Source of the DNA: a virus
Strand: one strand, 5' to 3'
IMG/VR virus record: IMGVR_UViG_3300045988_088460
DNA: 44,037 nucleotides
Under the pieces are notes generated by a model. It had not been told where the DNA came from. It saw only the letters and a program-made list of their open reading frames with translations, and did not search any database. Below, one piece after another: positions 308 to 44,037 of the stretch. The position numbers and the translations under genes were made by a program. Numbering within the stretch: the first letter of the stretch is position 1; the number at the start of each line of letters is the position of its first letter.

Positions 308-1091
308 CTGGGCCACCATGAGCTGGAACCCTGTAACCGGGTGCCGCCATGGGTGCCCATACTGCTACGCAAGACGGACCGCCCACCGCTTTGACGCCGG
401 GTGTGTGGATCCTGACCCGCTGGCTGACGGCCTCCATGTGCTGGAGGAGAAGATCAAGGCCACGCCATACCCATACGGATTTGAACCCACCATGCACAGA
501 TACCGCCTGAACCAGCCGGAACGCCAAGCGGAGCCGCAGACGGTTTTTGTGTGCAGCATGGCGGATCTGTTCGGGCGCTGGGTGCCAACCTCCTGGATCG
601 CGGAGGTCCTGGACGCCTGCCGCCGCGCTCCGCAGCACCGCTATTTGTTCCTGACGAAAAACCCGGCCAGATACCTGCAACTGGACTACATGGGCTTACT
701 CCCGCATGAAAATAATTTCTGGTATGGGTCCACGGTGGCCAATGAGGACGCAGCGGCCATGTACACCATGCAGGGCGTGGCAATCAACAGCTTTTGGTCT
801 ATGGAGCCGCTGCTGGGGCCGGTGGACATGAGCGCGGCGGAGGGCCTGCCCCAGTGGGTGATCCTGGGGGCCGAAACCGGGAACCGGGCGGACAAGGTGG
901 CACCGCGGCGGGAGTGGGTGGACCAGATCACACAATTCTGCGCGGAGAACGAAATCCCGGTTTTCTACAAGGACAACCTGCGGGCGCATTTCCCGGATCT
1001 CCCGCCCTCCGCCTCCCCGTGGGATGACCGGGAGGACGCAACAGCGGAATGGGCCGCCCATTACATGGGGCGCTTTGAAAGGCAGGTATGA
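288..1091 (+). CDS. Phage Gp37/Gp68 family protein (DUF5131)
   Basis: 267 aa with a GGAGGA SD. The N-terminus KIDWATMSWNPVTGCRHGCPYCYA matches the conserved start of the DUF5131 family. Confidence 0.8.
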   Translation: MNKTKIDWATMSWNPVTGCRHGCPYCYARRTAHRFDAGCVDPDPLADGLHVLEEKIKATPYPYGFEPTMHRYRLNQPERQAEPQTVFVCSMADLFGRWVPTSWIAEVLDACRRAPQHRYLFLTKNPARYLQLDYMGLLPHENNFWYGSTVANEDAAAMYTMQGVAINSFWSMEPLLGPVDMSAAEGLPQWVILGAETGNRADKVAPRREWVDQITQFCAENEIPVFYKDNLRAHFPDLPPSASPWDDREDATAEWAAHYMGRFERQV

Positions 1092-1094
1092 CCC

Positions 1095-1343
1095 GTGGAA
1101 AAAATCGAAATTGGCTACACCGTGGAGAAAGAGCGGTGGCTGGAAGCGTCGGAAAATTTGCACGAGTTTGGCCAGATCATGGCGCGGAACCTGCGGAACA
1201 TGAACAGAGACGGGTGCGGACAGGAGGCCGCGGACGATCTCATGGCGGACATTATGCTGGCCTGTGCGGCCATCGGATATGTGGCGGAGTTTGCCGTGGA
1301 TAAATGCCGGTTTATTCCTATGCCGGGAGGTGGCCAGAAGTGA
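1095..1343 (+). CDS. Hypothetical protein
   Basis: 82-aa ORF with a GTG start just after the upstream stop. No recognisable motif. Confidence 0.45.
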   Translation: MEKIEIGYTVEKERWLEASENLHEFGQIMARNLRNMNRDGCGQEAADDLMADIMLACAAIGYVAEFAVDKCRFIPMPGGGQK

Positions 1344-1585
1344 CCGAGCAGAAAAGGCCGCAACAATGTGAGGGCTGCGCGCTGGCAGAGCATGACGCAT
1401 ATATTTGTGCCCGCTGGCGCCTGTCCTATGCGGTGAATGAGCTGAAAAAGGCCATTCCTATGGTGCGGAGGACGGCGGTGGAAAATATGAAATGCCCATA
1501 CCACTACCCCGCCAGCCTTTTGGGAACCGGGGTGGTGATAATGGACGAAATAGGGCCATGGCCGCCAAAAGGAAAGGGGCGCTGA
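1340..1585 (+). CDS. Hypothetical protein
   Basis: GTG 1340 is preceded by GGGAGGTGG and overlaps the upstream TGA. ATG 1304 is an alternative start. No family recognised. Confidence 0.4.
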   Translation: MTEQKRPQQCEGCALAEHDAYICARWRLSYAVNELKKAIPMVRRTAVENMKCPYHYPASLLGTGVVIMDEIGPWPPKGKGR

Positions 1586-1986
1586 CTGTGCGGGCGGTGC
1601 TTTTGAGCATAAAACCGGAATGGTGGGAGAAGATCCTGGCTGGGGAGAAAGACCTGGAAATCAGAAAGACGGTCCCGCGGGGCGGAGCCGGAGAGCCGGA
1701 ACCGTGGCCGCTGCTGGTCCTGGCGTATGTAAGCGGGACCGGGGCCGTGCTGGGGCAATTTCTCTGCATGGGGTGGGTGAAAAGCAACTGCTGGCGGTAT
1801 CTGTCCTCCCGATCCTGCGTACCGGAGGAGGATCTGAAAAAATACGCCGGCGGAAAATCGCTGTATGGCTGGATTGTGGGAGAGGCGGAGGCATACGACA
1901 CCCCCAGCCCGCTGGCAGAGTTCGGGCTGAACCGTCCGCCTATGTCGTGGCAATATGTGGAGATCCCGGACCCGGAGGACGAATAA
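1558..1986 (+). CDS. ASCH (PUA-like) domain protein
   Basis: LSIKPEWWEKILAGEKDLEIRK is a typical ASCH N-terminal motif. Start is ATG 1558, with GTG 1588 as an alternative. Confidence 0.7.
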   Translation: MAAKRKGALTVRAVLLSIKPEWWEKILAGEKDLEIRKTVPRGGAGEPEPWPLLVLAYVSGTGAVLGQFLCMGWVKSNCWRYLSSRSCVPEEDLKKYAGGKSLYGWIVGEAEAYDTPSPLAEFGLNRPPMSWQYVEIPDPEDE

Positions 1987-2459
1987 TGGCCATCAATCTT
2001 TCGGACCTGCCGCCCAAATATCAGCGGCAGGCCGTGGAAAAGTACATGAAGCAGCAGAAGCGGCGGGGGCCTGCGCCCTCCGCCGCCGCTGTGCAGAATA
2101 CAGACAGGGCGGCGAAATATCGCAACACCCCCACCGAGCGGGTCACCGCCTCCGGGGCCGTTCTCCGCTTTGACAGCCAAAAAGAGGCCCGGAGATATGA
2201 CCACCTGACCCTACGACAGCAAGCCGGAGAAATCCATGATCTGCGCCTCCAGGTGGATTTTACTTTGCAAGAGGCATACACAGACCAGGAGGGGCGGAGA
2301 GTACGGGCCATCCGCTACCGGGCAGATTTTACATACAGGGAGCGGGACGGGCGGCTGGTGGTGGAGGATGTAAAAAGCAAGCCCACCAGAACGCGGGAAT
2401 ATCTGATCAAGCGAAAGCTGATGAAAGAGCGGCGCGGAATTGACATAACCGAGGTGTGA
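1986..2459 (+). CDS. DUF1064 family protein (putative nuclease/resolvase-like)
   Basis: The ATG overlaps the upstream TAA. KYRNTPTE..., FDSQKEARRY, RYRADFTY and VVEDVKSKPT follow the DUF1064 pattern. Confidence 0.7.
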   Translation: MAINLSDLPPKYQRQAVEKYMKQQKRRGPAPSAAAVQNTDRAAKYRNTPTERVTASGAVLRFDSQKEARRYDHLTLRQQAGEIHDLRLQVDFTLQEAYTDQEGRRVRAIRYRADFTYRERDGRLVVEDVKSKPTRTREYLIKRKLMKERRGIDITEV

Positions 2460-2461
2460 AC

Positions 2462-2989
2462 ATGAAGCAGCAGACAACGGGCGGGGCCACCCGCGAAGCC
2501 GTAAAAGAATATTTACAGCAGTACCACATGGCGCGGGAGCGGCGGCGCATACTGGAGCGGCGGCATGATGTACTGGCGCGGGAGCTGAACGCCCCGGCAC
2601 CGGGGACTACATACAGGACCATGCCGGCCTCCCGCCCTGCGGCAGACAGCGAGGGGGCCGTGTCCGTTGTCTTTCGCTTGTCAGAGGTTGAGGAGCGCAT
2701 AGAAGCCCAACGGGTGGCCATGGGCCGGGCCATCACCATGGTGATGGATCTCATTGACCTGCTACCGGAGAACAGCATGGAGCGCACCGTGGTGGAACTG
2801 CGGCACATAGATTGCAAGAAATGGGAACGGATCTGCAAAGAGGTCCACATGAGCAGGTCAAGGGTAAATGTTTACTACAACGCCGCCCTGGATATTATTC
2901 TATCCAATGCACGGGCGCAGAAGTTAGTACAAGAGTTTGAGCAAGGGCAGACACCAGAGATATGCACAGAAAAAAATAGGCCATCTTGA
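2462..2989 (+). CDS. Sigma-70 region-4-like late transcription regulator (ArpU/RinA/DUF1492-like)
   Basis: ATG 2462 follows GAGGTG (the track start GTG 2456 is also possible). The C-terminal ERTVVELRHIDCKKWERICKEVHMSRSRVNVYYNAALDII resembles a region-4 HTH. It is the last gene before the packaging module. Confidence 0.5.
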   Translation: MKQQTTGGATREAVKEYLQQYHMARERRRILERRHDVLARELNAPAPGTTYRTMPASRPAADSEGAVSVVFRLSEVEERIEAQRVAMGRAITMVMDLIDLLPENSMERTVVELRHIDCKKWERICKEVHMSRSRVNVYYNAALDIILSNARAQKLVQEFEQGQTPEICTEKNRPS

Positions 2990-3076
2990 AAAGACAGGAC
3001 ACAACAGGACATTCACCTGTGGTATTCTGGTATCGTGGAAAACGACAGGGGCAAGAGCAAAGCCCCAGCCAAATAG

Positions 3077-3120
3077 AGAAAGGCCGCCAGGGCGTGAGAA
3101 CCTGACGGCCTTTCTGTTTC
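3077..3120 (+). terminator. Possible intrinsic terminator ending the early operon
   Basis: 10-bp stem AGAAAGGCCG/CGGCCTTTCT (3077-3086 / 3106-3115) with a 19-nt loop, followed by GTTTC. The large loop and weak U-tract lower confidence. Confidence 0.35.
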
Positions 3121-3378
3121 CACACCATGGGCCGGGGAGCAGAACCGCAGGGACTTTTCTCCTTTCCCCCTGCCCCGCCGCATTGTACACGAGCGCAGCG
3201 GGCTGGCCCAACCCCGTTGCCCTGGGCCGCTCATGCCGAGGGGTGGCCCAGGGCCTCCCTTGTGATTTTACCACCCCCTCCCCCATTTGGGTCCTTTCTG
3301 AAAAATAAATCTTTGCGGGGCAAGTGAAGTCCGATTATTTTCCACAAAAAATCAAAAATTTTCAGGGGTGTTTCGTTA

Positions 3379-22613: not shown

Positions 22614-25127
22614 ATGTTTTACGGATTTGTCATTACAGAGGCCGGCAACAATCTGCTGGCCAAAATGGTGGCCGGCGATAAGCTGACCATTACCAAGGTG
22701 GTCATGGACAAGGGCACGGCGGAGAGCGCGGAGGCCGCCCGGAAGCTGACCGCCCCCATTGACCCAGGCCCCAACGGCACCAGCACCGTGCCAACGGTGG
22801 AGGGCGCCGCTGTCAACATGCTGGTGGAGTATCGCAGCGACCTGAACGGCGGATTACAGGAAGGTTTCTGGATCGGTGGCTTTGCCGTGTTCGGCAAGGT
22901 AGAGAACGGGACCGAAACCATGATCTATTATGGGTCCCTGGGGGAGCAAAAGCAGTATGTGAGCGCCTATGTGGAGGGAACCGCCCCGGATGTGCGCCGC
23001 TACCCCGTTTCCATCACCGTGACCGCCGGCGTGGAGGTGGAAGTGTCCTACCCCGCGGAGGCGTGGATGACCGCCGAGGATGTGGCGGAATACTTCAACG
23101 GGACCCTAAAGCCGCAGCTGGAGGAGAGCCTGGATGACCTGATCGACGAACACAACAAGGATCCCAACGCCCACAACGGCGCCCTGAAAGACAAGCAGGA
23201 CGCCATCAAGGTGGAGGGCCTGCTGAAAGGGACCAAGACCACCGGCGAGGGCGGGGACACCTACAAGGTGGGCGCGGCCAAGCCGGGGACGGATTACCAG
23301 CAGCCCACCAACGCCCTGCCGGCGGCGGAGGAAATGTCCACGCAGGACTTCATCCCGTTCTACGACCACGCCAGCGGCCAGCACATGCGGGCCACCCTCC
23401 AGAGCTTGAAAGAGGCCATAGGCGTACAAAGCCCCTCCATCAAGGTGACCACCTGCACGGGCGCCGCCGTGACCTGTTCGGACGGGGAAACCACCCTGGA
23501 GGGGACCGGATCCACAGAGTTTGAACTGCCCCATGTGGGGGACTGGACCGCGACGGCCACCCTGGACGGACAGAGCGCCACCCAGCTGGTGGAGGTGAGC
23601 GGCGCCCTGCTGTACGAGGTGGACCTGATGATCACCGAGGGGATCGCAGTCACCACCCAGCCCAACAAAAAGACCTATTACATCGGGGAAGCATTTGACC
23701 CGGCGGGAATGGTGGTAACTGCCACCTTTGCGGATGACACCACCGAAAATGTGACGGACGATTGCACATTCTCCCCCGCCACCATCTCCAAGGACACCAC
23801 GGCCATCACGGTGAACTATCAGCGGGGCGGGATCAAAAAGACCGCCAGCGTGGCGGTGACGGTGCGGGTGCTGGCCAGCATTGAGATCTCCAACCCGCCC
23901 ACGAAAACCGCCTACAAGTACGGGGAAGTGTTCAGCCCGGCGGGTATGGCCGTCACGGCCCGCTATACAGACGGCCAGAGCCGTGCGGTGACCGGGTACA
24001 CCTATTCCCCCACCGGCGCCCTGAAATTGAGTGATACCACTATCACAGTTTCCTACACGGAGGGGGATGTGACCAAGACCACCACCCAGGCCATCACGGT
24101 GGCCAAGGTGCTGGACCGGATCGCAGTCACCACGCCCCCCAACCGCACCAGCTACTTTTCCGGTGAGCAGTTCAGCACCGCCGGCATGGTGGTGACTGCC
24201 TACTACACCGACGGAAGCAGCGGCGCGGTGACCGGGTACACCTATTCCCCCACCGGCGCCCTGGCCGCAGGAAATACCACCATCACGGTTTCCTACACAG
24301 AGGGCGGCGTGACCAAGACCACCACCCAAGCCATCACGGTGACCACCATCAACACCACGCTAAACTCCAACAGCTGGGCCACGATCAAAGCGGTTTCGGA
24401 TGCCGGAAAGGGTGATAATTACTGGGATGTGGGCGACACCAAGACCATCACCATCAACGGGACGGTGCAGGGCTTTACATTCTCCAACCTGTCCATTGCA
24501 GTTTTCATCATCGGATTTAACCACAACAGCAGCCGGGAGGGAAACAACCGGATCCATTTCCAGATCGGCAAGATCTCCAACAAGCTGGTGGGCCTGTGTG
24601 ATAGCAATTACGGCAACTATGTGTCAAGCGGTTTCTGTATGAACACTGAACAGACTAACCGCGGCGGATGGAGCAACAGCCACATGCGGAAAACCGTACT
24701 GGGCAACAGCGGAGCGCCGTCCAGCCCGCCGGCCAACTCCCTGCTGGCGGCTTTGCCGGCGGACTTACGGGCCGTTATGAAATCCGTGTCCAAGTACAGC
24801 GACAACAACGGCGGCGGATATGACACGGCCAGCTATGTGACGGCCACCACCGACTGGCTTTTCCTGCTGGCAGAGTTTGAATACCACGGCAAACAGAGCT
24901 ACGCCAACAGCGCGGAGCAGAACTACCAAAAGCAGTATGACTACTACAAGGCGGGCAACAGCAAGGTGCATTACAGGCACGACAGCACGGGAACGGCGGT
25001 CGGTGCGTGGACCCGTTCCGCCTATTCCGGCAACGGCAACTCTTTCTGCCTTGTCAACACGGACGGCACGCCCACCAACAGCGGCGCGGACGGTTCAAGG
25101 GCGCTGGCCCCCGGCTTTGCCGCCTAA
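22614..25127 (+). CDS. Tail fibre, DGR target 1
   Basis: 837 aa. The N-terminus resembles the P2 gpH tail-collar domain (MFYGFVITEAGNNLLAKMVAG...). It has three 80-aa Ig-like repeats. The C-terminal about 230-aa lectin-fold-like domain (DUF6273-like) ends in VR1 (...AWTRSAYSGNGNSFCLVNTDGTPTNSGADGSRALAPGFAA). Confidence 0.9.
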   Translation: MFYGFVITEAGNNLLAKMVAGDKLTITKVVMDKGTAESAEAARKLTAPIDPGPNGTSTVPTVEGAAVNMLVEYRSDLNGGLQEGFWIGGFAVFGKVENGTETMIYYGSLGEQKQYVSAYVEGTAPDVRRYPVSITVTAGVEVEVSYPAEAWMTAEDVAEYFNGTLKPQLEESLDDLIDEHNKDPNAHNGALKDKQDAIKVEGLLKGTKTTGEGGDTYKVGAAKPGTDYQQPTNALPAAEEMSTQDFIPFYDHASGQHMRATLQSLKEAIGVQSPSIKVTTCTGAAVTCSDGETTLEGTGSTEFELPHVGDWTATATLDGQSATQLVEVSGALLYEVDLMITEGIAVTTQPNKKTYYIGEAFDPAGMVVTATFADDTTENVTDDCTFSPATISKDTTAITVNYQRGGIKKTASVAVTVRVLASIEISNPPTKTAYKYGEVFSPAGMAVTARYTDGQSRAVTGYTYSPTGALKLSDTTITVSYTEGDVTKTTTQAITVAKVLDRIAVTTPPNRTSYFSGEQFSTAGMVVTAYYTDGSSGAVTGYTYSPTGALAAGNTTITVSYTEGGVTKTTTQAITVTTINTTLNSNSWATIKAVSDAGKGDNYWDVGDTKTITINGTVQGFTFSNLSIAVFIIGFNHNSSREGNNRIHFQIGKISNKLVGLCDSNYGNYVSSGFCMNTEQTNRGGWSNSHMRKTVLGNSGAPSSPPANSLLAALPADLRAVMKSVSKYSDNNGGGYDTASYVTATTDWLFLLAEFEYHGKQSYANSAEQNYQKQYDYYKAGNSKVHYRHDSTGTAVGAWTRSAYSGNGNSFCLVNTDGTPTNSGADGSRALAPGFAA
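23641..24360 (+). repeat. Three tandem 240-bp (80-aa) Ig-like (Big_3-like) repeats inside the fibre gene
   Basis: Units start near 23641, 23881 and 24121. Units 2 and 3 share an identical 39-mer (23985-24023 = 24225-24263). Confidence 0.8.
24994..25118 (+). repeat. DGR variable repeat 1 (VR1)
   Basis: Gap-free 125-nt alignment with TR 25728-25852. There are 12 internal mismatches, all at TR adenines. The end carries the GC box GGGCGCTGGCCCCCGG. Confidence 0.92.
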
Positions 25128-25150
25128 TCGCCGCAGCATATCCGGCCCCA

Positions 25151-25177
25151 ATCCCGTCCCGCGGAAGCGGGCGGGAT
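25151..25177 (+). promoter_or_regulatory. Post-VR1 hairpin (candidate DGR target-recognition element)
   Basis: ATCCCG(T)CCCGC-GGAA-GCGGGCGGGAT forms 11 bp with one bulge and a GNRA-type loop. It starts 32 nt after the VR1 end. An analogous hairpin follows VR2. Confidence 0.55.
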
Positions 25178-25214
25178 GACCGGATCGCAGAAACCAAGAG
25201 AGGAGGACGCCACC

Positions 25215-25673
25215 GTGTCCGTTTTGAAAGAGAAGCGCACCACCAGCAAGGCGGAATATGTGAACACCGCAAACCAGATCTATGTGAAAACCGTGGATTT
25301 TCTTTCGCGGCTGTCCGCCCGATATTCCCGGCTGATCGCGGCGGACACCGCCCGCCTGGCCGGTCAGGTCATGGACCACGCCGAGCAGGCAAACAAAATC
25401 TTTCCGTCCGACGCGCAGAGAAAGGAGCTGCGAAAAGCGCACCACCTGGAGGCCATGGCCGCCCTGTCTGCCCTGGATGTGCGCCTGACCCACTGTTATG
25501 AAATCCTGTACTGCAACCCGCAGGGCGCTTTTACAGACAGCAAGGGAAAGAGCGTACCGCCCAAGGAGGCCGCGGAGCGGCTGGACCGCATGGCCCAAGA
25601 GCTGGGAGAGCTGATCGACCAGGAGGAAACCCTGCTGCGGAACATCATGGAGAGCGACAAGAAACGAAAATAG
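25215..25673 (+). CDS. avd: Accessory variability determinant (Avd)-like helical protein
   Basis: Located between VR1 and TR. GTG 25215 lies 7 nt after AGAGGAGGA, and ATG 25176 is the track alternative. The 152-165 aa are predicted helical and basic. Assigned mainly by position. Confidence 0.65.
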   Translation: MSVLKEKRTTSKAEYVNTANQIYVKTVDFLSRLSARYSRLIAADTARLAGQVMDHAEQANKIFPSDAQRKELRKAHHLEAMAALSALDVRLTHCYEILYCNPQGAFTDSKGKSVPPKEAAERLDRMAQELGELIDQEETLLRNIMESDKKRK

Positions 25674-25727
25674 GTCATAACTGGGTGTATTTCTGAACAA
25701 GTGCCGTGCGGCAGGGCGACACTCCGG

Positions 25728-25853
25728 CGGCGGTCAATGCGTGGACCCGTTCCGCCAATTCCGGCAACAGCAACAATTTCTGCCTTGTCAACACGGACGG
25801 CACGCCCAACAACAACAACGCGGACAATTCAAGGGCGCTGGCCCCCGGATTTT
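25728..25853 (+). repeat. DGR template repeat (TR)
   Basis: Contains 30 adenines concentrated in AAY codons. In the VR frame it reads NAWTRSANSGNSNNFCLVNTDGTPNNNNADNSRALAPGF. It is non-coding here (the track ORF 25701..25901 is out of frame). After the GC box it has A (25849) where both VRs have C. Confidence 0.92.
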
Positions 25854-26069
25854 ATAGAATGGGTTGAAAGCGGACGCCAGGCGCGTCCCGAACCCGTATA
25901 AAAGGAGAAATACTTCCCTGGGTGTAAATCCCTAAAACTGCCCACTGACGGCCTTACACGGACGCTGCTTGCATGGCGGGGTATTGCGCTATCCCCGTTT
26001 CATGTGTCGGGCCAAAGTAGTTTAGACGCGCACCAACAAGACAACTATGCGGAGGGCGAATAAAATATT
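25854..26069 (+). ncRNA. TR-RT spacer, expected part of the DGR template RNA
   Basis: 216 nt with no credible ORF and several short hairpins (for example GGACGC-CAGGC-GCGTCC). In characterised DGRs, the spacer following the TR primes cDNA synthesis. Confidence 0.35.
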
Positions 26070-27227
26070 ATGACCAGCGAGGAGCGCCGGGAGGCGCGAT
26101 ACCGACGCCGCCAAGCGCGGCGGAGAAGAAACAGACAGGCCCGCAGCGACAGCCTGGGCGGACTGGCGGGCGTTTTCAGCTATCGAAACATGTTCAAGTA
26201 CGGGAAAAAGTGCTGCAACGGCGTGCGCTGGAAAGGGTCCACCCATAACTTTGAGCTGCACCTGTTTTCCGGCACGGCCAAGCGCCGGCGCAAAATCCTG
26301 GATGGAACATGGAGGCCGGGAAAAACAATCCGTTTTCCCCTGCGGGAGCGGGGAAAGTTTCGGATCATCGACGCCCCACACATCACGGACCGCCAGATCC
26401 ACAAGGTTTTCACCAGGGAGGTGCTGGCGCCGCTCTACTGCCCCAGCATGATCTACGACAACGGGGCCAGCCAAAAGGGAAAGGGCCTGCACTTCCATTA
26501 CCAGAGGTTAAAGGAACAGCTGCGCTGGCATTACCGGCGGCACGGGAGGCAGGGCGCCATAAAGCTGGCGGATTTTCACCACTTTTTCCCGGACGCGCCC
26601 CACGCGCTGCTGTACGAACGGCACCGGCGCCTGATCCTGGACCCGGATCTGCGGGCGCTGGCGGATCTGATGGTGGCCACGGTGCCGGGAGATGTGGGCA
26701 TGTACCTGGGCGTGGAGCCAAGCCAGCAGGAAATGGTGGCCCTGCCCTCCTATCTGGACAACTGGATGAAATGCCAGCTGTCCCTCCACGGCATGGGACA
26801 CTATATGGACGATTACAACGCAATCCTGGAGAGCGCGGAGCAGGCGGAGGAGGTCCTGGAGGCCATGATCCGCAGGGCGGAGGAAAAGGGGCTGACGATC
26901 AACCGGAATAAATGCCATGTGATCAGCCTGGACAAGCCTTTCCGTTTCTGCAAAGCCAAGTTTCAAATTTTGCCCAGCGGGCGGATCATCACACACGGGT
27001 GTAGGGACGGCATGAAGCGGGCGCGGCGGAAAATGCGATATTTCCGCCAGCAGGTGGACGCCGGGGAAAAGACCGTGGAGCAGGTGGCGGAGTGGCTGAA
27101 AGGCCCCATAGCCTACTACGAGCAATCAAACGACCATGGGCGGGTGCTGAAACTGCGCCGCCTGTATTACGCCCTGTTCATCAAGGGCAAGAAAACCGAG
27201 GAGGAAAAAGCATGTATCGGATTGTAA
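26070..27227 (+). CDS. DGR reverse transcriptase
   Basis: 385 aa. It has the YMDD catalytic motif (GHYMDDYN) and the DGR-type LGVEPSQ ([ILV]GxxxSQ) motif. It lies directly downstream of the TR. Confidence 0.92.
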   Translation: MTSEERREARYRRRQARRRRNRQARSDSLGGLAGVFSYRNMFKYGKKCCNGVRWKGSTHNFELHLFSGTAKRRRKILDGTWRPGKTIRFPLRERGKFRIIDAPHITDRQIHKVFTREVLAPLYCPSMIYDNGASQKGKGLHFHYQRLKEQLRWHYRRHGRQGAIKLADFHHFFPDAPHALLYERHRRLILDPDLRALADLMVATVPGDVGMYLGVEPSQQEMVALPSYLDNWMKCQLSLHGMGHYMDDYNAILESAEQAEEVLEAMIRRAEEKGLTINRNKCHVISLDKPFRFCKAKFQILPSGRIITHGCRDGMKRARRKMRYFRQQVDAGEKTVEQVAEWLKGPIAYYEQSNDHGRVLKLRRLYYALFIKGKKTEEEKACIGL

Positions 27228-32546: not shown

Positions 32547-33593
32547 ATGAAGGGATATAAGCACTTAACTGCCCATGATCGGAACAAAATGGCAAAAATG
32601 CGAAAAGAGGGCGCAACCATGCGCCAGATCGGCGCGGCCCTCCATGTGAGTGCGGCCACCGTCTGCCGGGAGCTAAAGCGCGGCACATACACCTACCTGA
32701 ACGCGGATTACATCGAGGTGACCGAATACATCCCGGAGCGATCACAAAAGAGGTACGAGGCCAACCTGGAAGCCAAGGGGCCGGGATTGAAGATCGGAAA
32801 CCATAGGGATTATGCCGAAAAGCTGGAGGAGCTGATCGTGGATTACGATTACAGCCCCTCCGCCGCCCTGCATGAAATTGAAAACCACCCGGAAATATAT
32901 GGGGAGTTCGGGGTGCGCGTCTGCCGGCAGACGCTTTATTCCTATGTGGAAAAGCGGATCTTTGCCCGCCTGACCAATAAAGACCTGCCTTTTAAGGGGT
33001 CCCGCCAGAAGAAAAAGACCAAGCACATACGCCGCATGAAATCCGCCGCAAAGGGGGACAGCATAGAGAAAAGGCCGGAGGAGGTCAACACGCGCCAAGA
33101 GCCTGGCCACTGGGAAATGGATCTGGTGGTGTCCTGCCGCGGCGGTCACAAGTGCCTTATGGCCCTAACCGAGCGGGTGACCCGTCAGGAGATCATGCGC
33201 CTAATCCCGGACAAGAGCGCCGCCAGCGTGGTGCGGGCCATGAATACGCTGGAGCGGAAATATGGAAAAATGTTCCCGGAGGTATTCAAGACCATTACCG
33301 TGGACAATGGCACGGAGTTTTCCGACTGTGAGGGCATGGAAACCTCTGTATTTAAGGCAGGCGGCCAGCGTACCAAAATGTATTACTGTCACCCATATTG
33401 CAGCAGCGAAAGAGGAAGCAATGAAAAGCAAAACCAGATGATCCGGCGAAAATTCCCAAAGGGAACCAACTTCGACAAAGTTTCCCCCAAAGAGGTCCGC
33501 GTGGTGGAGGACTGGCTGAACAGATACCCCCGCAAGATCCTGGGATGGTATAGCAGCGCGGACCTGTTCAACCAGATTTTTGGGGGCATTTGA
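32547..33593 (+). CDS. IS30-family DDE transposase
   Basis: 348 aa. N-terminal HTH (LTAHDRNKMAKMRKEGATMRQIGAALHVSAATVCRELKRG). GHWEMDLV...ITVDNGTEFS...ERGSNEKQNQMIRRKFPKG matches the IS30 catalytic core. Confidence 0.9.
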   Translation: MKGYKHLTAHDRNKMAKMRKEGATMRQIGAALHVSAATVCRELKRGTYTYLNADYIEVTEYIPERSQKRYEANLEAKGPGLKIGNHRDYAEKLEELIVDYDYSPSAALHEIENHPEIYGEFGVRVCRQTLYSYVEKRIFARLTNKDLPFKGSRQKKKTKHIRRMKSAAKGDSIEKRPEEVNTRQEPGHWEMDLVVSCRGGHKCLMALTERVTRQEIMRLIPDKSAASVVRAMNTLERKYGKMFPEVFKTITVDNGTEFSDCEGMETSVFKAGGQRTKMYYCHPYCSSERGSNEKQNQMIRRKFPKGTNFDKVSPKEVRVVEDWLNRYPRKILGWYSSADLFNQIFGGI

Positions 33594-33651
33594 AAAATTT
33601 TTTACTTTTTGTTACGCTTACCTATTGACATTTGCCATTGAAAATGCTACT

Positions 33652-33696
33652 AATAAGAGTAACAAAGCGTAAAGGCTTGTTACTCTTATTTTTTTA
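33652..33696 (+). terminator. Strong intrinsic terminator after the transposase gene
   Basis: 14-bp perfect stem AATAAGAGTAACAA/TTGTTACTCTTATT with an 11-nt loop, followed by TTTTT. Confidence 0.75.
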
Positions 33697-33720: not shown

Positions 33721-33981
33721 ATGAGCAACAAATATTTGGGGCCTGCGGAGCGGCAGCTGATCGCAGAGAAGTGGGCCGCTTATGCGTCGGTGCGGGAGAT
33801 CGCGGGCCTGGTAGGTGTGGCACCTAAAACCATTTACGAGGAATTGAGGCGCGGGAGCAACGGCACCCTGGACAAGAATAGCCGCAAGGCATACAACCCG
33901 GAGCTGGCCCAGCGTCGTTTCCAGGAAAGCCTCCGACGGCGCGGCAAGCCCCTGAACAGAGCGCGGGCGGCCAATGAATGA
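33721..33981 (+). CDS. IS30-like HTH-only protein
   Basis: 86 aa. YLGPAERQLIAEKWAAYASVREIAGLVGVAPKTIYEELRRG parallels the N-terminal HTH of the adjacent transposase. No catalytic domain is present. Confidence 0.6.
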   Translation: MSNKYLGPAERQLIAEKWAAYASVREIAGLVGVAPKTIYEELRRGSNGTLDKNSRKAYNPELAQRRFQESLRRRGKPLNRARAANE

Positions 33982-34661
33982 GCGACCCCACCGCCATGGA
34001 GGCGGATAAAACAAAGGAGGAAATGAAAATGGCAACCATCATCAAGCAGACGAAAGAGGAAATCAACTGGGCGGAGATCGCCAGGGCCAGAGAAATGGGT
34101 GTACTGGACAAGCTCCTGGCGGAGCGGGATGTGATCCGCTTCAATCTGCGGAGCGGCGCCGAGGTGGCCGTCATGGTGGAAAAGGTGGAGCCGGGCCGGG
34201 TATGGATGGGCTTTGTGGACGGAGTGGCCGAGCGGCCCATGTATAACCGCCTGGCGCGTCCTGTGTCCTGGAAAGAGAGCGACGCCCGGAAATGGTGCAA
34301 CACCGATCTGGTCCAGGATCTCCCGGAGGAGCTGGTGGCCATCATCACGCCCCGCACTATCCGCCAGACCATCAAGGGCGAGGAGCTGGTGACCACGGAT
34401 CTGCTATGGCTGCACAGCGTAACGGAGCTTTTTGGGCGCAAGTCCTGGGCAGATGGGGACGATCCCACGGAGGAGCAGCTGCCGGTCTATAAGACCGAGC
34501 GGGACCGCGTGAAGATGTGGGACGGGCAGACATGGCCGCATTACACCCGTTCCGCCCATTCCGGCACCAGCGACCGTTTCTGCCTTGTCGGCACGGACGG
34601 CACGCCCACCGGCGACGACGCGGACGTTTCCTGGGCGCTGGCCCCCGGCTTTTGGATCTAA
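33978..34661 (+). CDS. DGR target 2: free-standing paralogue of the tail-fibre tip domain
   Basis: 227 aa, or 210 aa from ATG 34029, which has the better AAAGGAGG SD. It is collinear with the fibre C-terminal domain and ends in VR2 (...HYTRSAHSGTSDRFCLVGTDGTPTGDDADVSWALAPGFWI). Confidence 0.85.
   Translation: MSDPTAMEADKTKEEMKMATIIKQTKEEINWAEIARAREMGVLDKLLAERDVIRFNLRSGAEVAVMVEKVEPGRVWMGFVDGVAERPMYNRLARPVSWKESDARKWCNTDLVQDLPEELVAIITPRTIRQTIKGEELVTTDLLWLHSVTELFGRKSWADGDDPTEEQLPVYKTERDRVKMWDGQTWPHYTRSAHSGTSDRFCLVGTDGTPTGDDADVSWALAPGFWI
34545..34653 (+). repeat. DGR variable repeat 2 (VR2)
   Basis: Gap-free alignment with TR 25745-25853. There are 16 internal mismatches, all at TR adenines. It carries the same GC box followed by C. 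Confidence 0.9.
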
Positions 34662-34686: not shown

Positions 34687-34705
34687 CCGCCCCTGCAAGG
34701 GGCGG
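34687..34705 (+). promoter_or_regulatory. Post-VR2 hairpin
   Basis: CCGCCCC-TGCAA-GGGGCGG starts 33 nt after the VR2 end. The 5' flank AATCCCG is shared with the VR1 hairpin. Confidence 0.5.
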
Positions 34706-39070: not shown

Positions 39071-39291
39071 CGATGGGAAAGACGAATTTTGACCGGATCA
39101 CCGCCTCCCCGGAGGCCCTGGCCTCTTTTTTGGCCTCCCTCCCCTGCCTGGACGCGCCATGGAATGACGATTTTCACCGGATTTTCTGCGACAACTGCCC
39201 CATGGAGGACTGCCCCAAGGTATGCCCGCACGAAGCGGAGCGGAACAGCCCGGCGTGGTGGCTGTCACTTTCGCCAGATCTGAACCCATGA
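39067..39291 (+). CDS. Small Cys-rich hypothetical protein
   Basis: 74 aa. The ATG overlaps the upstream TGA. Contains CDNCPMEDCPKVCPHE. Confidence 0.45.
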   Translation: MTMGKTNFDRITASPEALASFLASLPCLDAPWNDDFHRIFCDNCPMEDCPKVCPHEAERNSPAWWLSLSPDLNP

Positions 39292-39613
39292 AAAATAGAG
39301 ATAACGCCGGGTTGCACATAGAAAACCGACAGATCCAGTACATTGCCCGGATTAGCCATGGAAAGGACAGCATGAAAATGCTGGATGTGATCATTTCGAG
39401 GGGGCTAAAGCTGGATCGAATTACAACAACAGATATATGGGCAACTGAAACAATCCGCGGGGAATACCCGGAAATGGTGAAGTTCAAAGAACGGGCAGAC
39501 GAATATATCTGGCAAAAATACCGTATCGAGGTGGAACACCTGTGCGCTATGCGGAACGGCGAGAAACAGACCTATGAAAGACTGTTCTACCATGTTCCAA
39601 AGCGGAAATCTGC

Positions 39614-39621
39614 GGGGGGGG
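39614..39621 (+). repeat. Poly-G tract (G8) in the frame-overlap window of the split gene
   Basis: ...GGAAATCTGC-GGGGGGGG-CATTG. The 8 nt 5' of it are identical to those before the G10 tract at 36081. Confidence 0.9.
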
Positions 39622-39668
39622 CATTGAAAACAGGGAAAATCCTGGGTTTTCCGACCCTGTGGGGGCCG

Positions 39669-39799
39669 TGGTGCCAATCGGGCCTAAAACGCGGTGTGAA
39701 GCACCGAGCAAAAGAGTGTCTATCCACAAAGATAATTTCGGGCCGGACAGTATCAAAGGATTTCCTGTCAGCTTTACAAACAAGGGAACCTGGTGCCAA
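39669..39799 (+). repeat. 9-bp direct repeats TGGTGCCAA flanking a 122-bp interruption
   Basis: Copies at 39669-39677 (codon-aligned in frame A) and 39791-39799 (codon-aligned in frame B). The 122-nt spacing equals the frame offset. Confidence 0.8.
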
Positions 39800-40279
39800 C
39801 GCCTCAAAACCAGATTTTTAGAAAGCCCCGCCGCGAGGGGCGGTACAAATATCGTGGAATACCTGGGAATAGCAGCAGATGAACCGGGACGGTTCGGGCA
39901 ACTGAATGAACGCAAGCGCGCTCCGCTGGTAGAGTTTGGTATTGAAGAGGGCCTTTGCGGCCTGTACTGCCAGTACGAGGGTATTTTGGCCCCAAGCTAC
40001 GAAACGAGCTGCCGGGACGGGTGTTGGATGTGCCACAATCAGGGTGTAAACCAACTCCGGCAGCTACGCAAGAACCACTCGGAGCTATGGGCAATCCTGC
40101 TGAAATGGGACGCAGACAGCCCGGTAAATTTCAAGCCAGACGGGCGGACGGTCCATGACTATGAATTGCGGTTTCAATTAGAGGATGACGGCCTGTTGAT
40201 ACCAGGTGATACACGCTTTAGGTGGTCCATGCTGAATGAGCCATTAAATTACAGAATGTTTTAAGAGAAATACGGAGGC

Positions 40280-43527: not shown

Positions 43528-44037
43528 ATGACCCGTTGCCGCTACTGCGGGCATGGGCAGACGGGAGCAGAAAATAAAGAAATCCCGGATGATAAACTGT
43601 TTATTCACTTTTGGGCGAAGCAATCGCCGTGCGGGATCATCGGGATTGCACAATGCGATAAGGTCCAAGGCGAGTGTCTGGACTTCAAGCCTAACCCCAT
43701 GTTTGGAATTTGCGAATACTGCACTTTCACAAACAGCTTTCATCCCGGATTTTGTACGGCGCCCGGCGGGCCGGTGAACAAGCGGCGGGTATTCCTGGGA
43801 TGGAGCGGGATAGGAGATTATTACTCCGGCCACGCGCTTTTCACCTGTGACCGCTATCGAGTGAGTGAACGGTGGAAAGACCTAATCCTAAAAACCACCG
43901 TAGCGGGACGCGCACCGGCAAATTTTGACCCAGGAACATGGGAAGCCCTGAAACACATTGACGGGACAGCTACGGCAAAACGGTGGGCGGACCTGCAAGC
44001 CAAACGAAAGGCAGAACTGGAGGCAGAGGCAGAAAAA
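43528..44037 (+). CDS. Cys-rich hypothetical protein, 5' part (runs off the window end and closes at 109 on the circle)
   Basis: ATG 43528 (MTRCRYCGHG...). There is no stop before 44037, so it is absent from the ORF track. It has 10 Cys, including CRYC and CEYC pairs, and a coiled-coil tail. The in-frame GTG 43504 is an alternative start. Confidence 0.6.
   Translation, partial: MTRCRYCGHGQTGAENKEIPDDKLFIHFWAKQSPCGIIGIAQCDKVQGECLDFKPNPMFGICEYCTFTNSFHPGFCTAPGGPVNKRRVFLGWSGIGDYYSGHALFTCDRYRVSERWKDLILKTTVAGRAPANFDPGTWEALKHIDGTATAKRWADLQAKRKAELEAEAEK
43989..44037. repeat. Terminal direct repeat, copy 2
   Basis: Identical to nt 1-49. Confidence 0.95.

Follow-up and report, generated by a model that had tools for sequence, protein, structure and literature searches.

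The window analysed here is the whole of IMG/VR virus record IMGVR_UViG_3300045988_088460, a stretch of 44,037 nt. It belongs to a gut phage and carries a diversity-generating retroelement (DGR) beside a tail-fibre gene and, remote from it, a small gene whose 3' end is a second variable repeat (VR2) of the same template repeat (TR). Bases 1-49 recur at 43989-44037, a 49-bp direct terminal repeat that reflects assembly overlap, so that the genome is a circle of 43,988 bp. The fibre, whose gene ends in the first variable repeat (VR1), is laid out as an N-terminal fibre region, three Big_3 immunoglobulin (Ig)-like repeats and a C-terminal DUF6273 head. It is followed by a 165-aa open reading frame (ORF), a candidate Avd by position only, and then by the TR and the reverse transcriptase, which was assigned from its RVT_1 domain and motifs rather than from a clade-specific profile. 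We examined whether the small gene is a working second target of this retroelement, as an earlier note on the sequence had proposed.

Template repeat, variable repeats and recognition elements

Only three TR-like copies occur in the window. VR2 and the TR align over 109 nt without gaps and differ at 17 positions, every one of them a TR adenine, and the probability of such confinement by chance is 1.6e-12 (hypergeometric). The earlier note had reported 16 mismatches, all at adenines; the seventeenth is the A-to-C change at 25849, which it had listed separately as the C following the GC box. VR1 differs from the TR by 11 changes at adenines and by one base beyond the repeat end. Eight of these 11 sites are altered in VR2 as well (25757, 25775/6, 25809, 25817, 25826/7 and 25849), in agreement with the note for all but the last, which it had not counted among them. 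VR1 and VR2 are read in the identical frame. By codon position, 27 of the 29 TR adenines fall at positions 1-2 and two at position 3, ten codons are of the AAY type, and adenine changes cannot create a stop codon, leaving about 7e15 possible peptides. Sequence identity collapses directly beyond the 109-nt repeat.

VR1 lies 0.7 kb upstream of the TR. VR2 lies 8.8 kb downstream of it in the circle and about 35 kb away in the lysogen, and the retroelement must therefore act on it in trans.

All three copies contain the same 16-nt GC box (GGGCGCTGGCCCCCGG, at 25099, 25833 and 34633). The base after the box is C in every VR and A in 13 of 13 TRs, counted over the window and more than 20 loci; the box and following C that had been noted at VR2 are thus both present. 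At VR1 and VR2 the box is followed, at a like spacing, by a G+C hairpin, with a 7-bp G+C stem at VR2. The VRs of Dulem virus 34 and MT835543 share with VR1 and VR2 the GC box, the VR-specific C, a TCTAATC motif and the G+C hairpin; the TR has neither the VR-specific C, nor the TCTAATC motif, nor a hairpin. Among relatives, the stem sequence of the VR1 hairpin differs while its pairing is kept. The VR2 hairpin is kept in all of them with small stem and loop changes, the loop reading (T/C)GCAA. The features are collected in Table 1.

Following established DGR biology, the TR (25745-25853) would be transcribed and copied by the adjacent reverse transcriptase, which would misread adenines. The complementary DNA (cDNA) would then replace DNA that has TR homology, ends in the GC box and C, and is followed by a G+C hairpin. 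VR1 and VR2 both carry these required elements, and with the retroelement acting in trans one template diversifies two paralogous binding surfaces independently, at 16-17 codons.

Table 1. Features of the retroelement, its two targets and the joined prophage ends (window coordinates; IMH, initiation of mutagenic homing).
Feature	Position	Strand	Basis and remarks
VR2, last 36 codons of small target	34545..34653	+	17/17 mismatches to TR at adenines
Small stand-alone DGR target, 210 aa	34029..34661	+	Pfam DUF6273, 41 bits vs cut-off 23.5; single C-type-lectin-like domain
GC box GGGCGCTGGCCCCCGG + VR-specific C at VR2, IMH-like 3' element	34633..34649	+	Same box in all copies
G+C hairpin 3' of VR2, CCGCCCC-TGCAA-GGGGCGG	34687..34705	+	DNA fold; 38 nt after GC box
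TR	25745..25853	+	29 adenines in 109 nt; homology to VR1 reaches upstream to ~25731
VR1, 3' end of fibre gene	25011..25119	+	97/109 bases match TR
G+C hairpin 3' of VR1, CCCGTCCCGC-GGAA-GCGGGCGGG	25153..25175	+	DNA fold; 38 nt after GC box
Tail-fibre gene, 837 aa, first DGR target	22614..25127	+	Pfam Big_3, DUF6273; PHROG tail fiber protein over residues 1-196
165-aa ORF in accessory (Avd) gene position	25176..25673	+	Between target and TR; conserved in relatives
DGR reverse transcriptase, 385 aa	26070..27227	+	Pfam RVT_1; LGVEPSQ ([ILV]GxxxSQ) and YMDD motifs
Full-length IS30-family transposase, outward-facing, right prophage end	32547..33593	+	NCBIfam transpos_IS30, 217 bits vs cut-off 80
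Circle junction	33621..33673	.	Right terminus ends 33636 (...TTGACATTTGCC); spacer AT 33637-33638; left terminus starts 33639 (TGAAAATGCTACTAAT...)
86-aa HTH_38-only ORF, truncated inward-facing IS30 remnant	33721..33981	+	Pfam HTH_38; PHROG transposase N-terminus

The small target gene and its protein

The small gene lies within an ORF at 33978-34661, as had been described. In-frame ATGs occur at 33978 and 34023. The best start is the ATG at 34029, 8 nt past a ribosome-binding site (aaggagg, 34014-34020); in Dulem virus 34 the homologue has its start at the corresponding residue, and the protein from this start is 210 aa long. Its scaffold, the first 172 codons, gave dN/dS values of 0.13-0.23 in 14 of 15 comparisons, and because this indicates purifying selection we regard the gene as real.

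DUF6273 is the sole Pfam domain of the protein; in the 227-aa form it spans residues 88-215 and has the VR at its C-terminal end. The fibre ends in the same domain after its three Big_3 repeats. BLASTP aligned the two proteins over only 91 aa, at 43% identity and mostly within the VR. A comparison using a profile of 61 diverse family members extended the match to residues 10-209 of the small protein and about 583-836 of the fibre (99.5% probability, E 6e-23, 199 columns). The collinearity with the fibre end reported earlier thus holds over the whole length, to the last ~255 fibre residues, but the relationship is distant. Rather than the 'copy' of the fibre tip first described, the small protein is the whole fibre head without a shaft, a distant paralogue about 20-30% identical outside the VR. 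No hydrophobic segment was found in it (maximum Kyte-Doolittle value 0.68), consistent with the lack of a signal peptide stated in the earlier note.

A first structure model, built on a shallow alignment of relatives at least 43% identical, gave a predicted local distance difference test (pLDDT) score of 63, a disordered VR and no meaningful fold matches, and modelling was repeated with a diverse alignment. The resulting AlphaFold2 model had a pLDDT of 96.9, and from it the small protein is confidently predicted to have a DUF6273/C-type-lectin-like fold. The structural kinship with the fibre tip on which the earlier proposal depended is borne out by this model together with the full-length homology. 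[quoted passage not shown] Canonical C-type lectins were weak fold matches (E > 0.1). Neither the 50 best PDB fold hits nor the results of the PDB sequence-profile search included an Mtd chain, and Pfam found no Ig domain in the 210-aa protein, which therefore does not qualify as a tentaclin. The predicted viral structures that match the model are DUF6273 proteins, either stand-alone (163-206 aa) or the C-termini of fibre-like proteins of 400-1400 aa. Residues ~60-254 of 9QA6 match the family profile A3, and this is the only solved structure near the small-target family.

A family search gave 530 hits at E <= 0.001, and most of the 150 representatives listed are 200-230 aa long and match end to end. 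Three giant proteins (P0134, 3404 aa; P0135, 3973 aa; P0164, 2439 aa) contain 5-9 tandem matches to the small-target domain. For some close relatives of the small target the called ORF is longer, at 268-321 aa (P0024, P0025, P0032, P0033, P0035, P0039 and P0046). At one locus (L052, 495-1367) the ORF runs from the same upstream ATG to about 190 nt beyond the usual stop, which suggests stop loss or a frameshift near the VR.

Relatives and prophage ends

A protein search with the small target returned 72 hits, all 72 with DUF6273, whose 90% clusters hold 510-3125 distinct sequences. The scaffold is nearly invariant among them, and variation in the last 36 residues falls exactly at A-containing codons, with an entropy of 2-3.3 bits at the AAY codons. 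In pairwise comparisons within two near-clonal clusters there were 0.9-1.8 differences per 172 scaffold residues and 10.4-10.6 per 38 terminal residues. VR2 is different in each of ten IMG/VR relatives, and in Dulem virus 34 and two further relatives (L050, L051) its mismatches to the genome's own TR are at adenines only. VR2 is diversified both between genomes and within 90% clusters; the invariant VR2 that the earlier note had considered as the mark of a dead target is not what is seen, with about 10.5 differences in the last 38 residues against about 1-2 in the other 172.

One recurrent difference from the TR lies outside the adenines. At the site corresponding to 25785 (codon CTT, Leu186 in the small target), 13 of 13 TRs have T, and many VR1, VR2 and VR3 copies have G, giving Leu to Arg (recurring in L013, L032, L037, L050 and L051). 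Leu and Arg occur in a ratio of 50:23 among 73 variants and toggle inside near-clonal clusters. cDNA that rewrites adenine sites upstream of this base should reset it. Site-specific misincorporation by the reverse transcriptase is a possible source of the difference, as is repair protecting a G:A mismatch.

In three relatives about 95% identical to the window, the cassette has been lost (L008 3028-3125, L009 1794-1890 and L011 3565-3660, equivalent to window 25120-27180). They have no Avd-position gene, TR, reverse transcriptase or VR1 hairpin and keep both VRs. The 3-kb block around VR1 and the deletion is ~100% identical between genomes, while the flanks are 78-94% identical, and hence either the deletion block spread by recombination or the flanks were replaced. 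Recombination explains that the three genomes carry different VR2s next to a shared, frozen VR1, and trans diversification after loss of the retroelement, which we had considered, is unnecessary. L008 also provides a control: it is the only genome of the P0003 lineage sampled across the cassette site and lacks Avd, TR, reverse transcriptase and VR1 hairpin, and on 414 contigs of this lineage VR2 is one and the same, with an additional codon.

Two contigs from a single Dysosmobacter metagenome-assembled genome, at first a candidate for heterogeneity within a sample, were rejected as two strains, 88% identical throughout. Two contigs (L048, L049) end within ~50 nt of the 3' end of the gene, and many carrier assemblies are short (1-2 kb contigs); contig ends near the VR would be the effect expected of within-sample VR heterogeneity on the assembly graph.

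The small gene varies in place and number among relatives, with 0-2 copies per genome. MT835543 shows only VR1. Dulem virus 34 has no gene at the small-target slot and carries a 36%-identical homologue, with its own A-only VR, after an adenine methyltransferase. F. porci P01024 (L026) and L051 have both small genes, and in L051 one TR matches three VRs, at -0.7, +8.4 and +14.8 kb. Relatives with three targets, the fibre and two paralogous small DUF6273 genes, are represented by L051 (1568, 10662 and 17085), L026 (2223-2855 and 7587-8255) and L001 (35648-36313). In every case the second small gene comes after an N6/N4 DNA methyltransferase. This neighbour recurs in Dulem virus 34, L026, L048, L051 and the unrelated Roseburia phage Shimadzu, where orf43 belongs to the replication module. 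The slot used in Dulem virus 34 by the methyltransferase and the second small target is filled in the window, at 39222-40264, by two other ORFs, one of which resembles PAPS reductase (PHROG 424/28782).

Upstream of the small gene, the two ends of the prophage meet. Host-to-phage breakpoints were mapped in 16 prophage loci. Host DNA directly follows the transposase in at least seven different right-end contexts, at least four left-end contexts were seen, and host genes lie directly upstream of the HTH_38 ORF in L003, L005-L007 and L026. The HTH_38 ORF is hence the first gene from the left prophage end and the small target the second. An imperfect terminal inverted repeat (33601-33620 / 33654-33673) brackets the whole 44-kb phage, not the transposase gene alone. 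Its two termini abut in the circle, separated by a 2-nt spacer whose bases vary among relatives. The phage is an IS30-mobilised (IScream-type) temperate myovirus of Oscillospiraceae, with the IS30 transposase serving as its integrase; the genome records give Flavonifractor porci (an isolate), Dysosmobacter and other Oscillospirales as hosts. The transposase and HTH ORF that the earlier note had placed upstream of the small gene are both present, as the joined right and left ends of the phage and not as an inserted element.

At 33625-33630, 6 nt inside the right terminus, stands a perfect outward -35 sequence (TTGACA). The left terminus has TGcTACTAAT (33625-33654 region) at 17-18 nt from TTGACA across the 2-nt junction, an arrangement that we take to be the geometry of IS30-type junction promoters. 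On circularisation a promoter could arise that is directed towards the HTH ORF and the VR2 gene. This promoter-like sequence is conserved in relatives, but it is also a transposase-binding end, and its conservation proves nothing. A perfect 14-bp inverted repeat (AATAAGAGTAACAA / TTGTTACTCTTATT) with a T-run behind it (33652-33696) is located inside the left terminus, upstream of the HTH ORF, and resembles a terminator or repeated GTAAC transposase sites.

Competing explanations, role and known systems

We hold with high confidence that 34029-34661 is a real gene for a 210-aa DUF6273 protein and that VR2 is a working second DGR target, so that the earlier proposal of a non-adjacent target, a free-standing paralogue of the fibre tip domain, is supported. 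Ordinary gene conversion or a recent duplication instead of retrohoming might be suggested by the paralogy of the two proteins and by the heavy recombination of these phages. Neither would confine 17 of 17 differences to TR adenines (P = 1.6e-12), leave the non-coding TR as the all-adenine copy, or account for identity that stops at the repeat boundary; the mismatch spectrum effectively refutes this account, and we assign it next to no probability. The bona fide IS30-family transposase upstream could likewise be taken, as the wording of the earlier note implies, for an autonomous element that inserted beside the small gene and is unrelated to phage biology. This is very improbable: in relatives that are just 76% identical the small gene and HTH ORF keep their position, at many insertion sites host DNA begins right after the transposase gene and gives way to phage DNA with the HTH ORF as first gene, and the architecture is that of the published IScream phages. 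A further view is that VR2 was formerly diversified and is no longer a competent target in this genome. Guo 2011 showed that a VR requires the IMH together with a G+C hairpin 4-34 bp away, its stem 7-10 bp and its GRNA loop 4 nt long; a loop 2 nt larger came close to abolishing homing in BPP-1 (Guo 2011). VR2 has each of these elements except the loop size. Some observations do weigh against a working target: the VR2 loop has 5 nt (TGCAA) where VR1 has the canonical GGAA; the 165-aa ORF gave no match in Pfam (up to E 10) or NCBIfam and has no recognisable Avd signature; a scan upstream of the small gene found no sigma-70-like promoter; some relatives without the retroelement still carry different VR2 alleles, which recombination explains, indirectly; and current VR2 activity in this phage is read from its relatives. 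A fossil VR2 would fit both the departure from the GRNA consensus and the frozen VR2 of one widespread lineage. Yet the sampled genome of that lineage (L008) lacks the retroelement and has a VR2 indel, the window has an intact reverse transcriptase, TR, GC box and hairpin with zero non-adenine mismatches in VR2, and the same type of hairpin stands beside highly variable VR2s in relatives that bear the retroelement. We therefore consider a fossil improbable and retain VR2 as a working target.

What the diversified protein does is a separate matter, for which the earlier note had suggested an exchangeable or accessory tip or a binder outside the virion. It is probably a soluble module that binds ligands and is expressed from the early arm. 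Attached to the virion, on the fibre or baseplate, as an alternative or accessory tip for receptor binding, it would give the particle two independently diversified binding heads, and we see this as a substantial possibility, though short of an even chance. The small protein shares homology with the fibre head domain from end to end, phage DGR targets are usually receptor-binding proteins, the authors of nd4/nd12 favour an Mtd-like role for DUF6273-only targets (PMC10743442), and the lack of a signal peptide fits cytoplasmic assembly. Against a tip on the virion, the protein has no Mtd-type N-terminal attachment domain and no Mtd fold match, its gene is in the early/replication arm and not the tail module (and beside DNA methyltransferase genes in unrelated phages), and its presence in 0, 1 or 2 copies in close relatives is unusual for a structural part. 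Because of the early-arm position, the methyltransferase neighbours, the variable copy number and the missing attachment domain, we lean, with low certainty, towards an accessory or diffusible binder over a fixed structural part of the tail. In unrelated gut phages, genes of the small-target type are found repeatedly next to DNA-modification genes or at the edge of the prophage. The fuller scenario, in which the target is no part of the virion and is a soluble, hypervariable lectin-like binder, produced early and working within the infected cell or once lysis has freed it, with transcription perhaps only in the excised circle, seems to us unlikely.

Precedents exist for every structural feature of this system, and its novelty lies in the phage class and in the prophage-edge location. 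In the survey by Wu et al. 2018 (PMC5758913), 45 of 372 DGRs had non-adjacent targets, which in phages are typically located in the same prophage, with the smallest targets consisting of a C-type lectin fold alone and with 5' boundaries that differ between the targets of one DGR. All of these features apply here, without a difference in kind. In Roseburia phage Shimadzu, VR1 is in a tail gene next to the reverse transcriptase and VR2 in orf43, of unknown function, and ~2% of reads at both VRs had 10-15 DGR-type mismatches (Cornuault et al., bioRxiv 10.1101/575076). The orf43 protein, which was reached with more distant family members as queries, matches the small protein over 199 columns (hhalign 99.9%, E 1e-32, residues 7-211 vs 8-209), and it too is stand-alone (~209 aa), in the early/replication arm and remote from the TR. 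Shimadzu differs in belonging to another phage group, with a conventional integrase and with orf43 after a DNA methyltransferase, whereas here the small gene follows a truncated IS30 ORF at the prophage end and diversification is read from relatives, not from reads.

Lelie and CP11, two Faecalibacterium phages, have also been reported to pair a large with a small DUF6273 target (Gulyaeva 2024, PMC11792537). In Toutatisvirus the second DUF6273 target lies 17.5 kb from the TR, with some relatives that are without the retroelement keeping both targets (bioRxiv 10.1101/2024.10.15.618418). These phages share with the window one TR serving two DUF6273 proteins, a VR at the domain C-terminus and a second target kilobases away, and relatives that keep both targets without a retroelement occur here too. 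The large target of Toutatisvirus is Hoc-like or a tentaclin, while here it is a tail fibre with Big_3 repeats. A tblastn search of phage records with the window protein found Dulem virus 34 only and no Faecalibacterium phage, so that any sequence kinship is distant. [quoted passage not shown]

With the Mtd DGR of BPP-1 the system shares adenine mutagenesis, a GC-rich IMH at the 3' end of the VR, a downstream G+C hairpin and a C-terminal VR in a domain of C-type-lectin type. It differs in that the small protein is without the beta-prism and beta-sandwich attachment domains of Mtd, which is absent from its top 50 PDB fold matches, in that IMH and IMH* are distinguished here by the single base after the GC box, and in the 5-nt VR2 loop. 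The IScream phages (Wirbel, Hickey et al., Nature 2025, PMC12823448), for which lysogeny in hosts of different taxonomic families has been reported, have the same outward full-length IS30 transposase and inward truncated IS30 ORF, many integration sites and Clostridia hosts. PMC12823448 describes no DGRs in these phages; in the window, the cargo that follows the truncated IS30 ORF starts with a DGR target gene.

The window offers a well-resolved example of one TR feeding a structural fibre and a free paralogue, or two free paralogues in some relatives. The question of what a small, anchor-less, hypervariable lectin-like early protein does is one that it shares with Shimadzu, Lelie, CP11 and Toutatisvirus. 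The lineage with frozen tips, whose sampled genome lacks the retroelement, is a ready-made control for metagenomic estimates of diversification rates. This is apparently the first IS30-mobilised (IScream) phage shown to carry such a retroelement, and a diversified fibre together with accessory binders is an obvious candidate contributor to the ability of IScream phages to lysogenise hosts across families.

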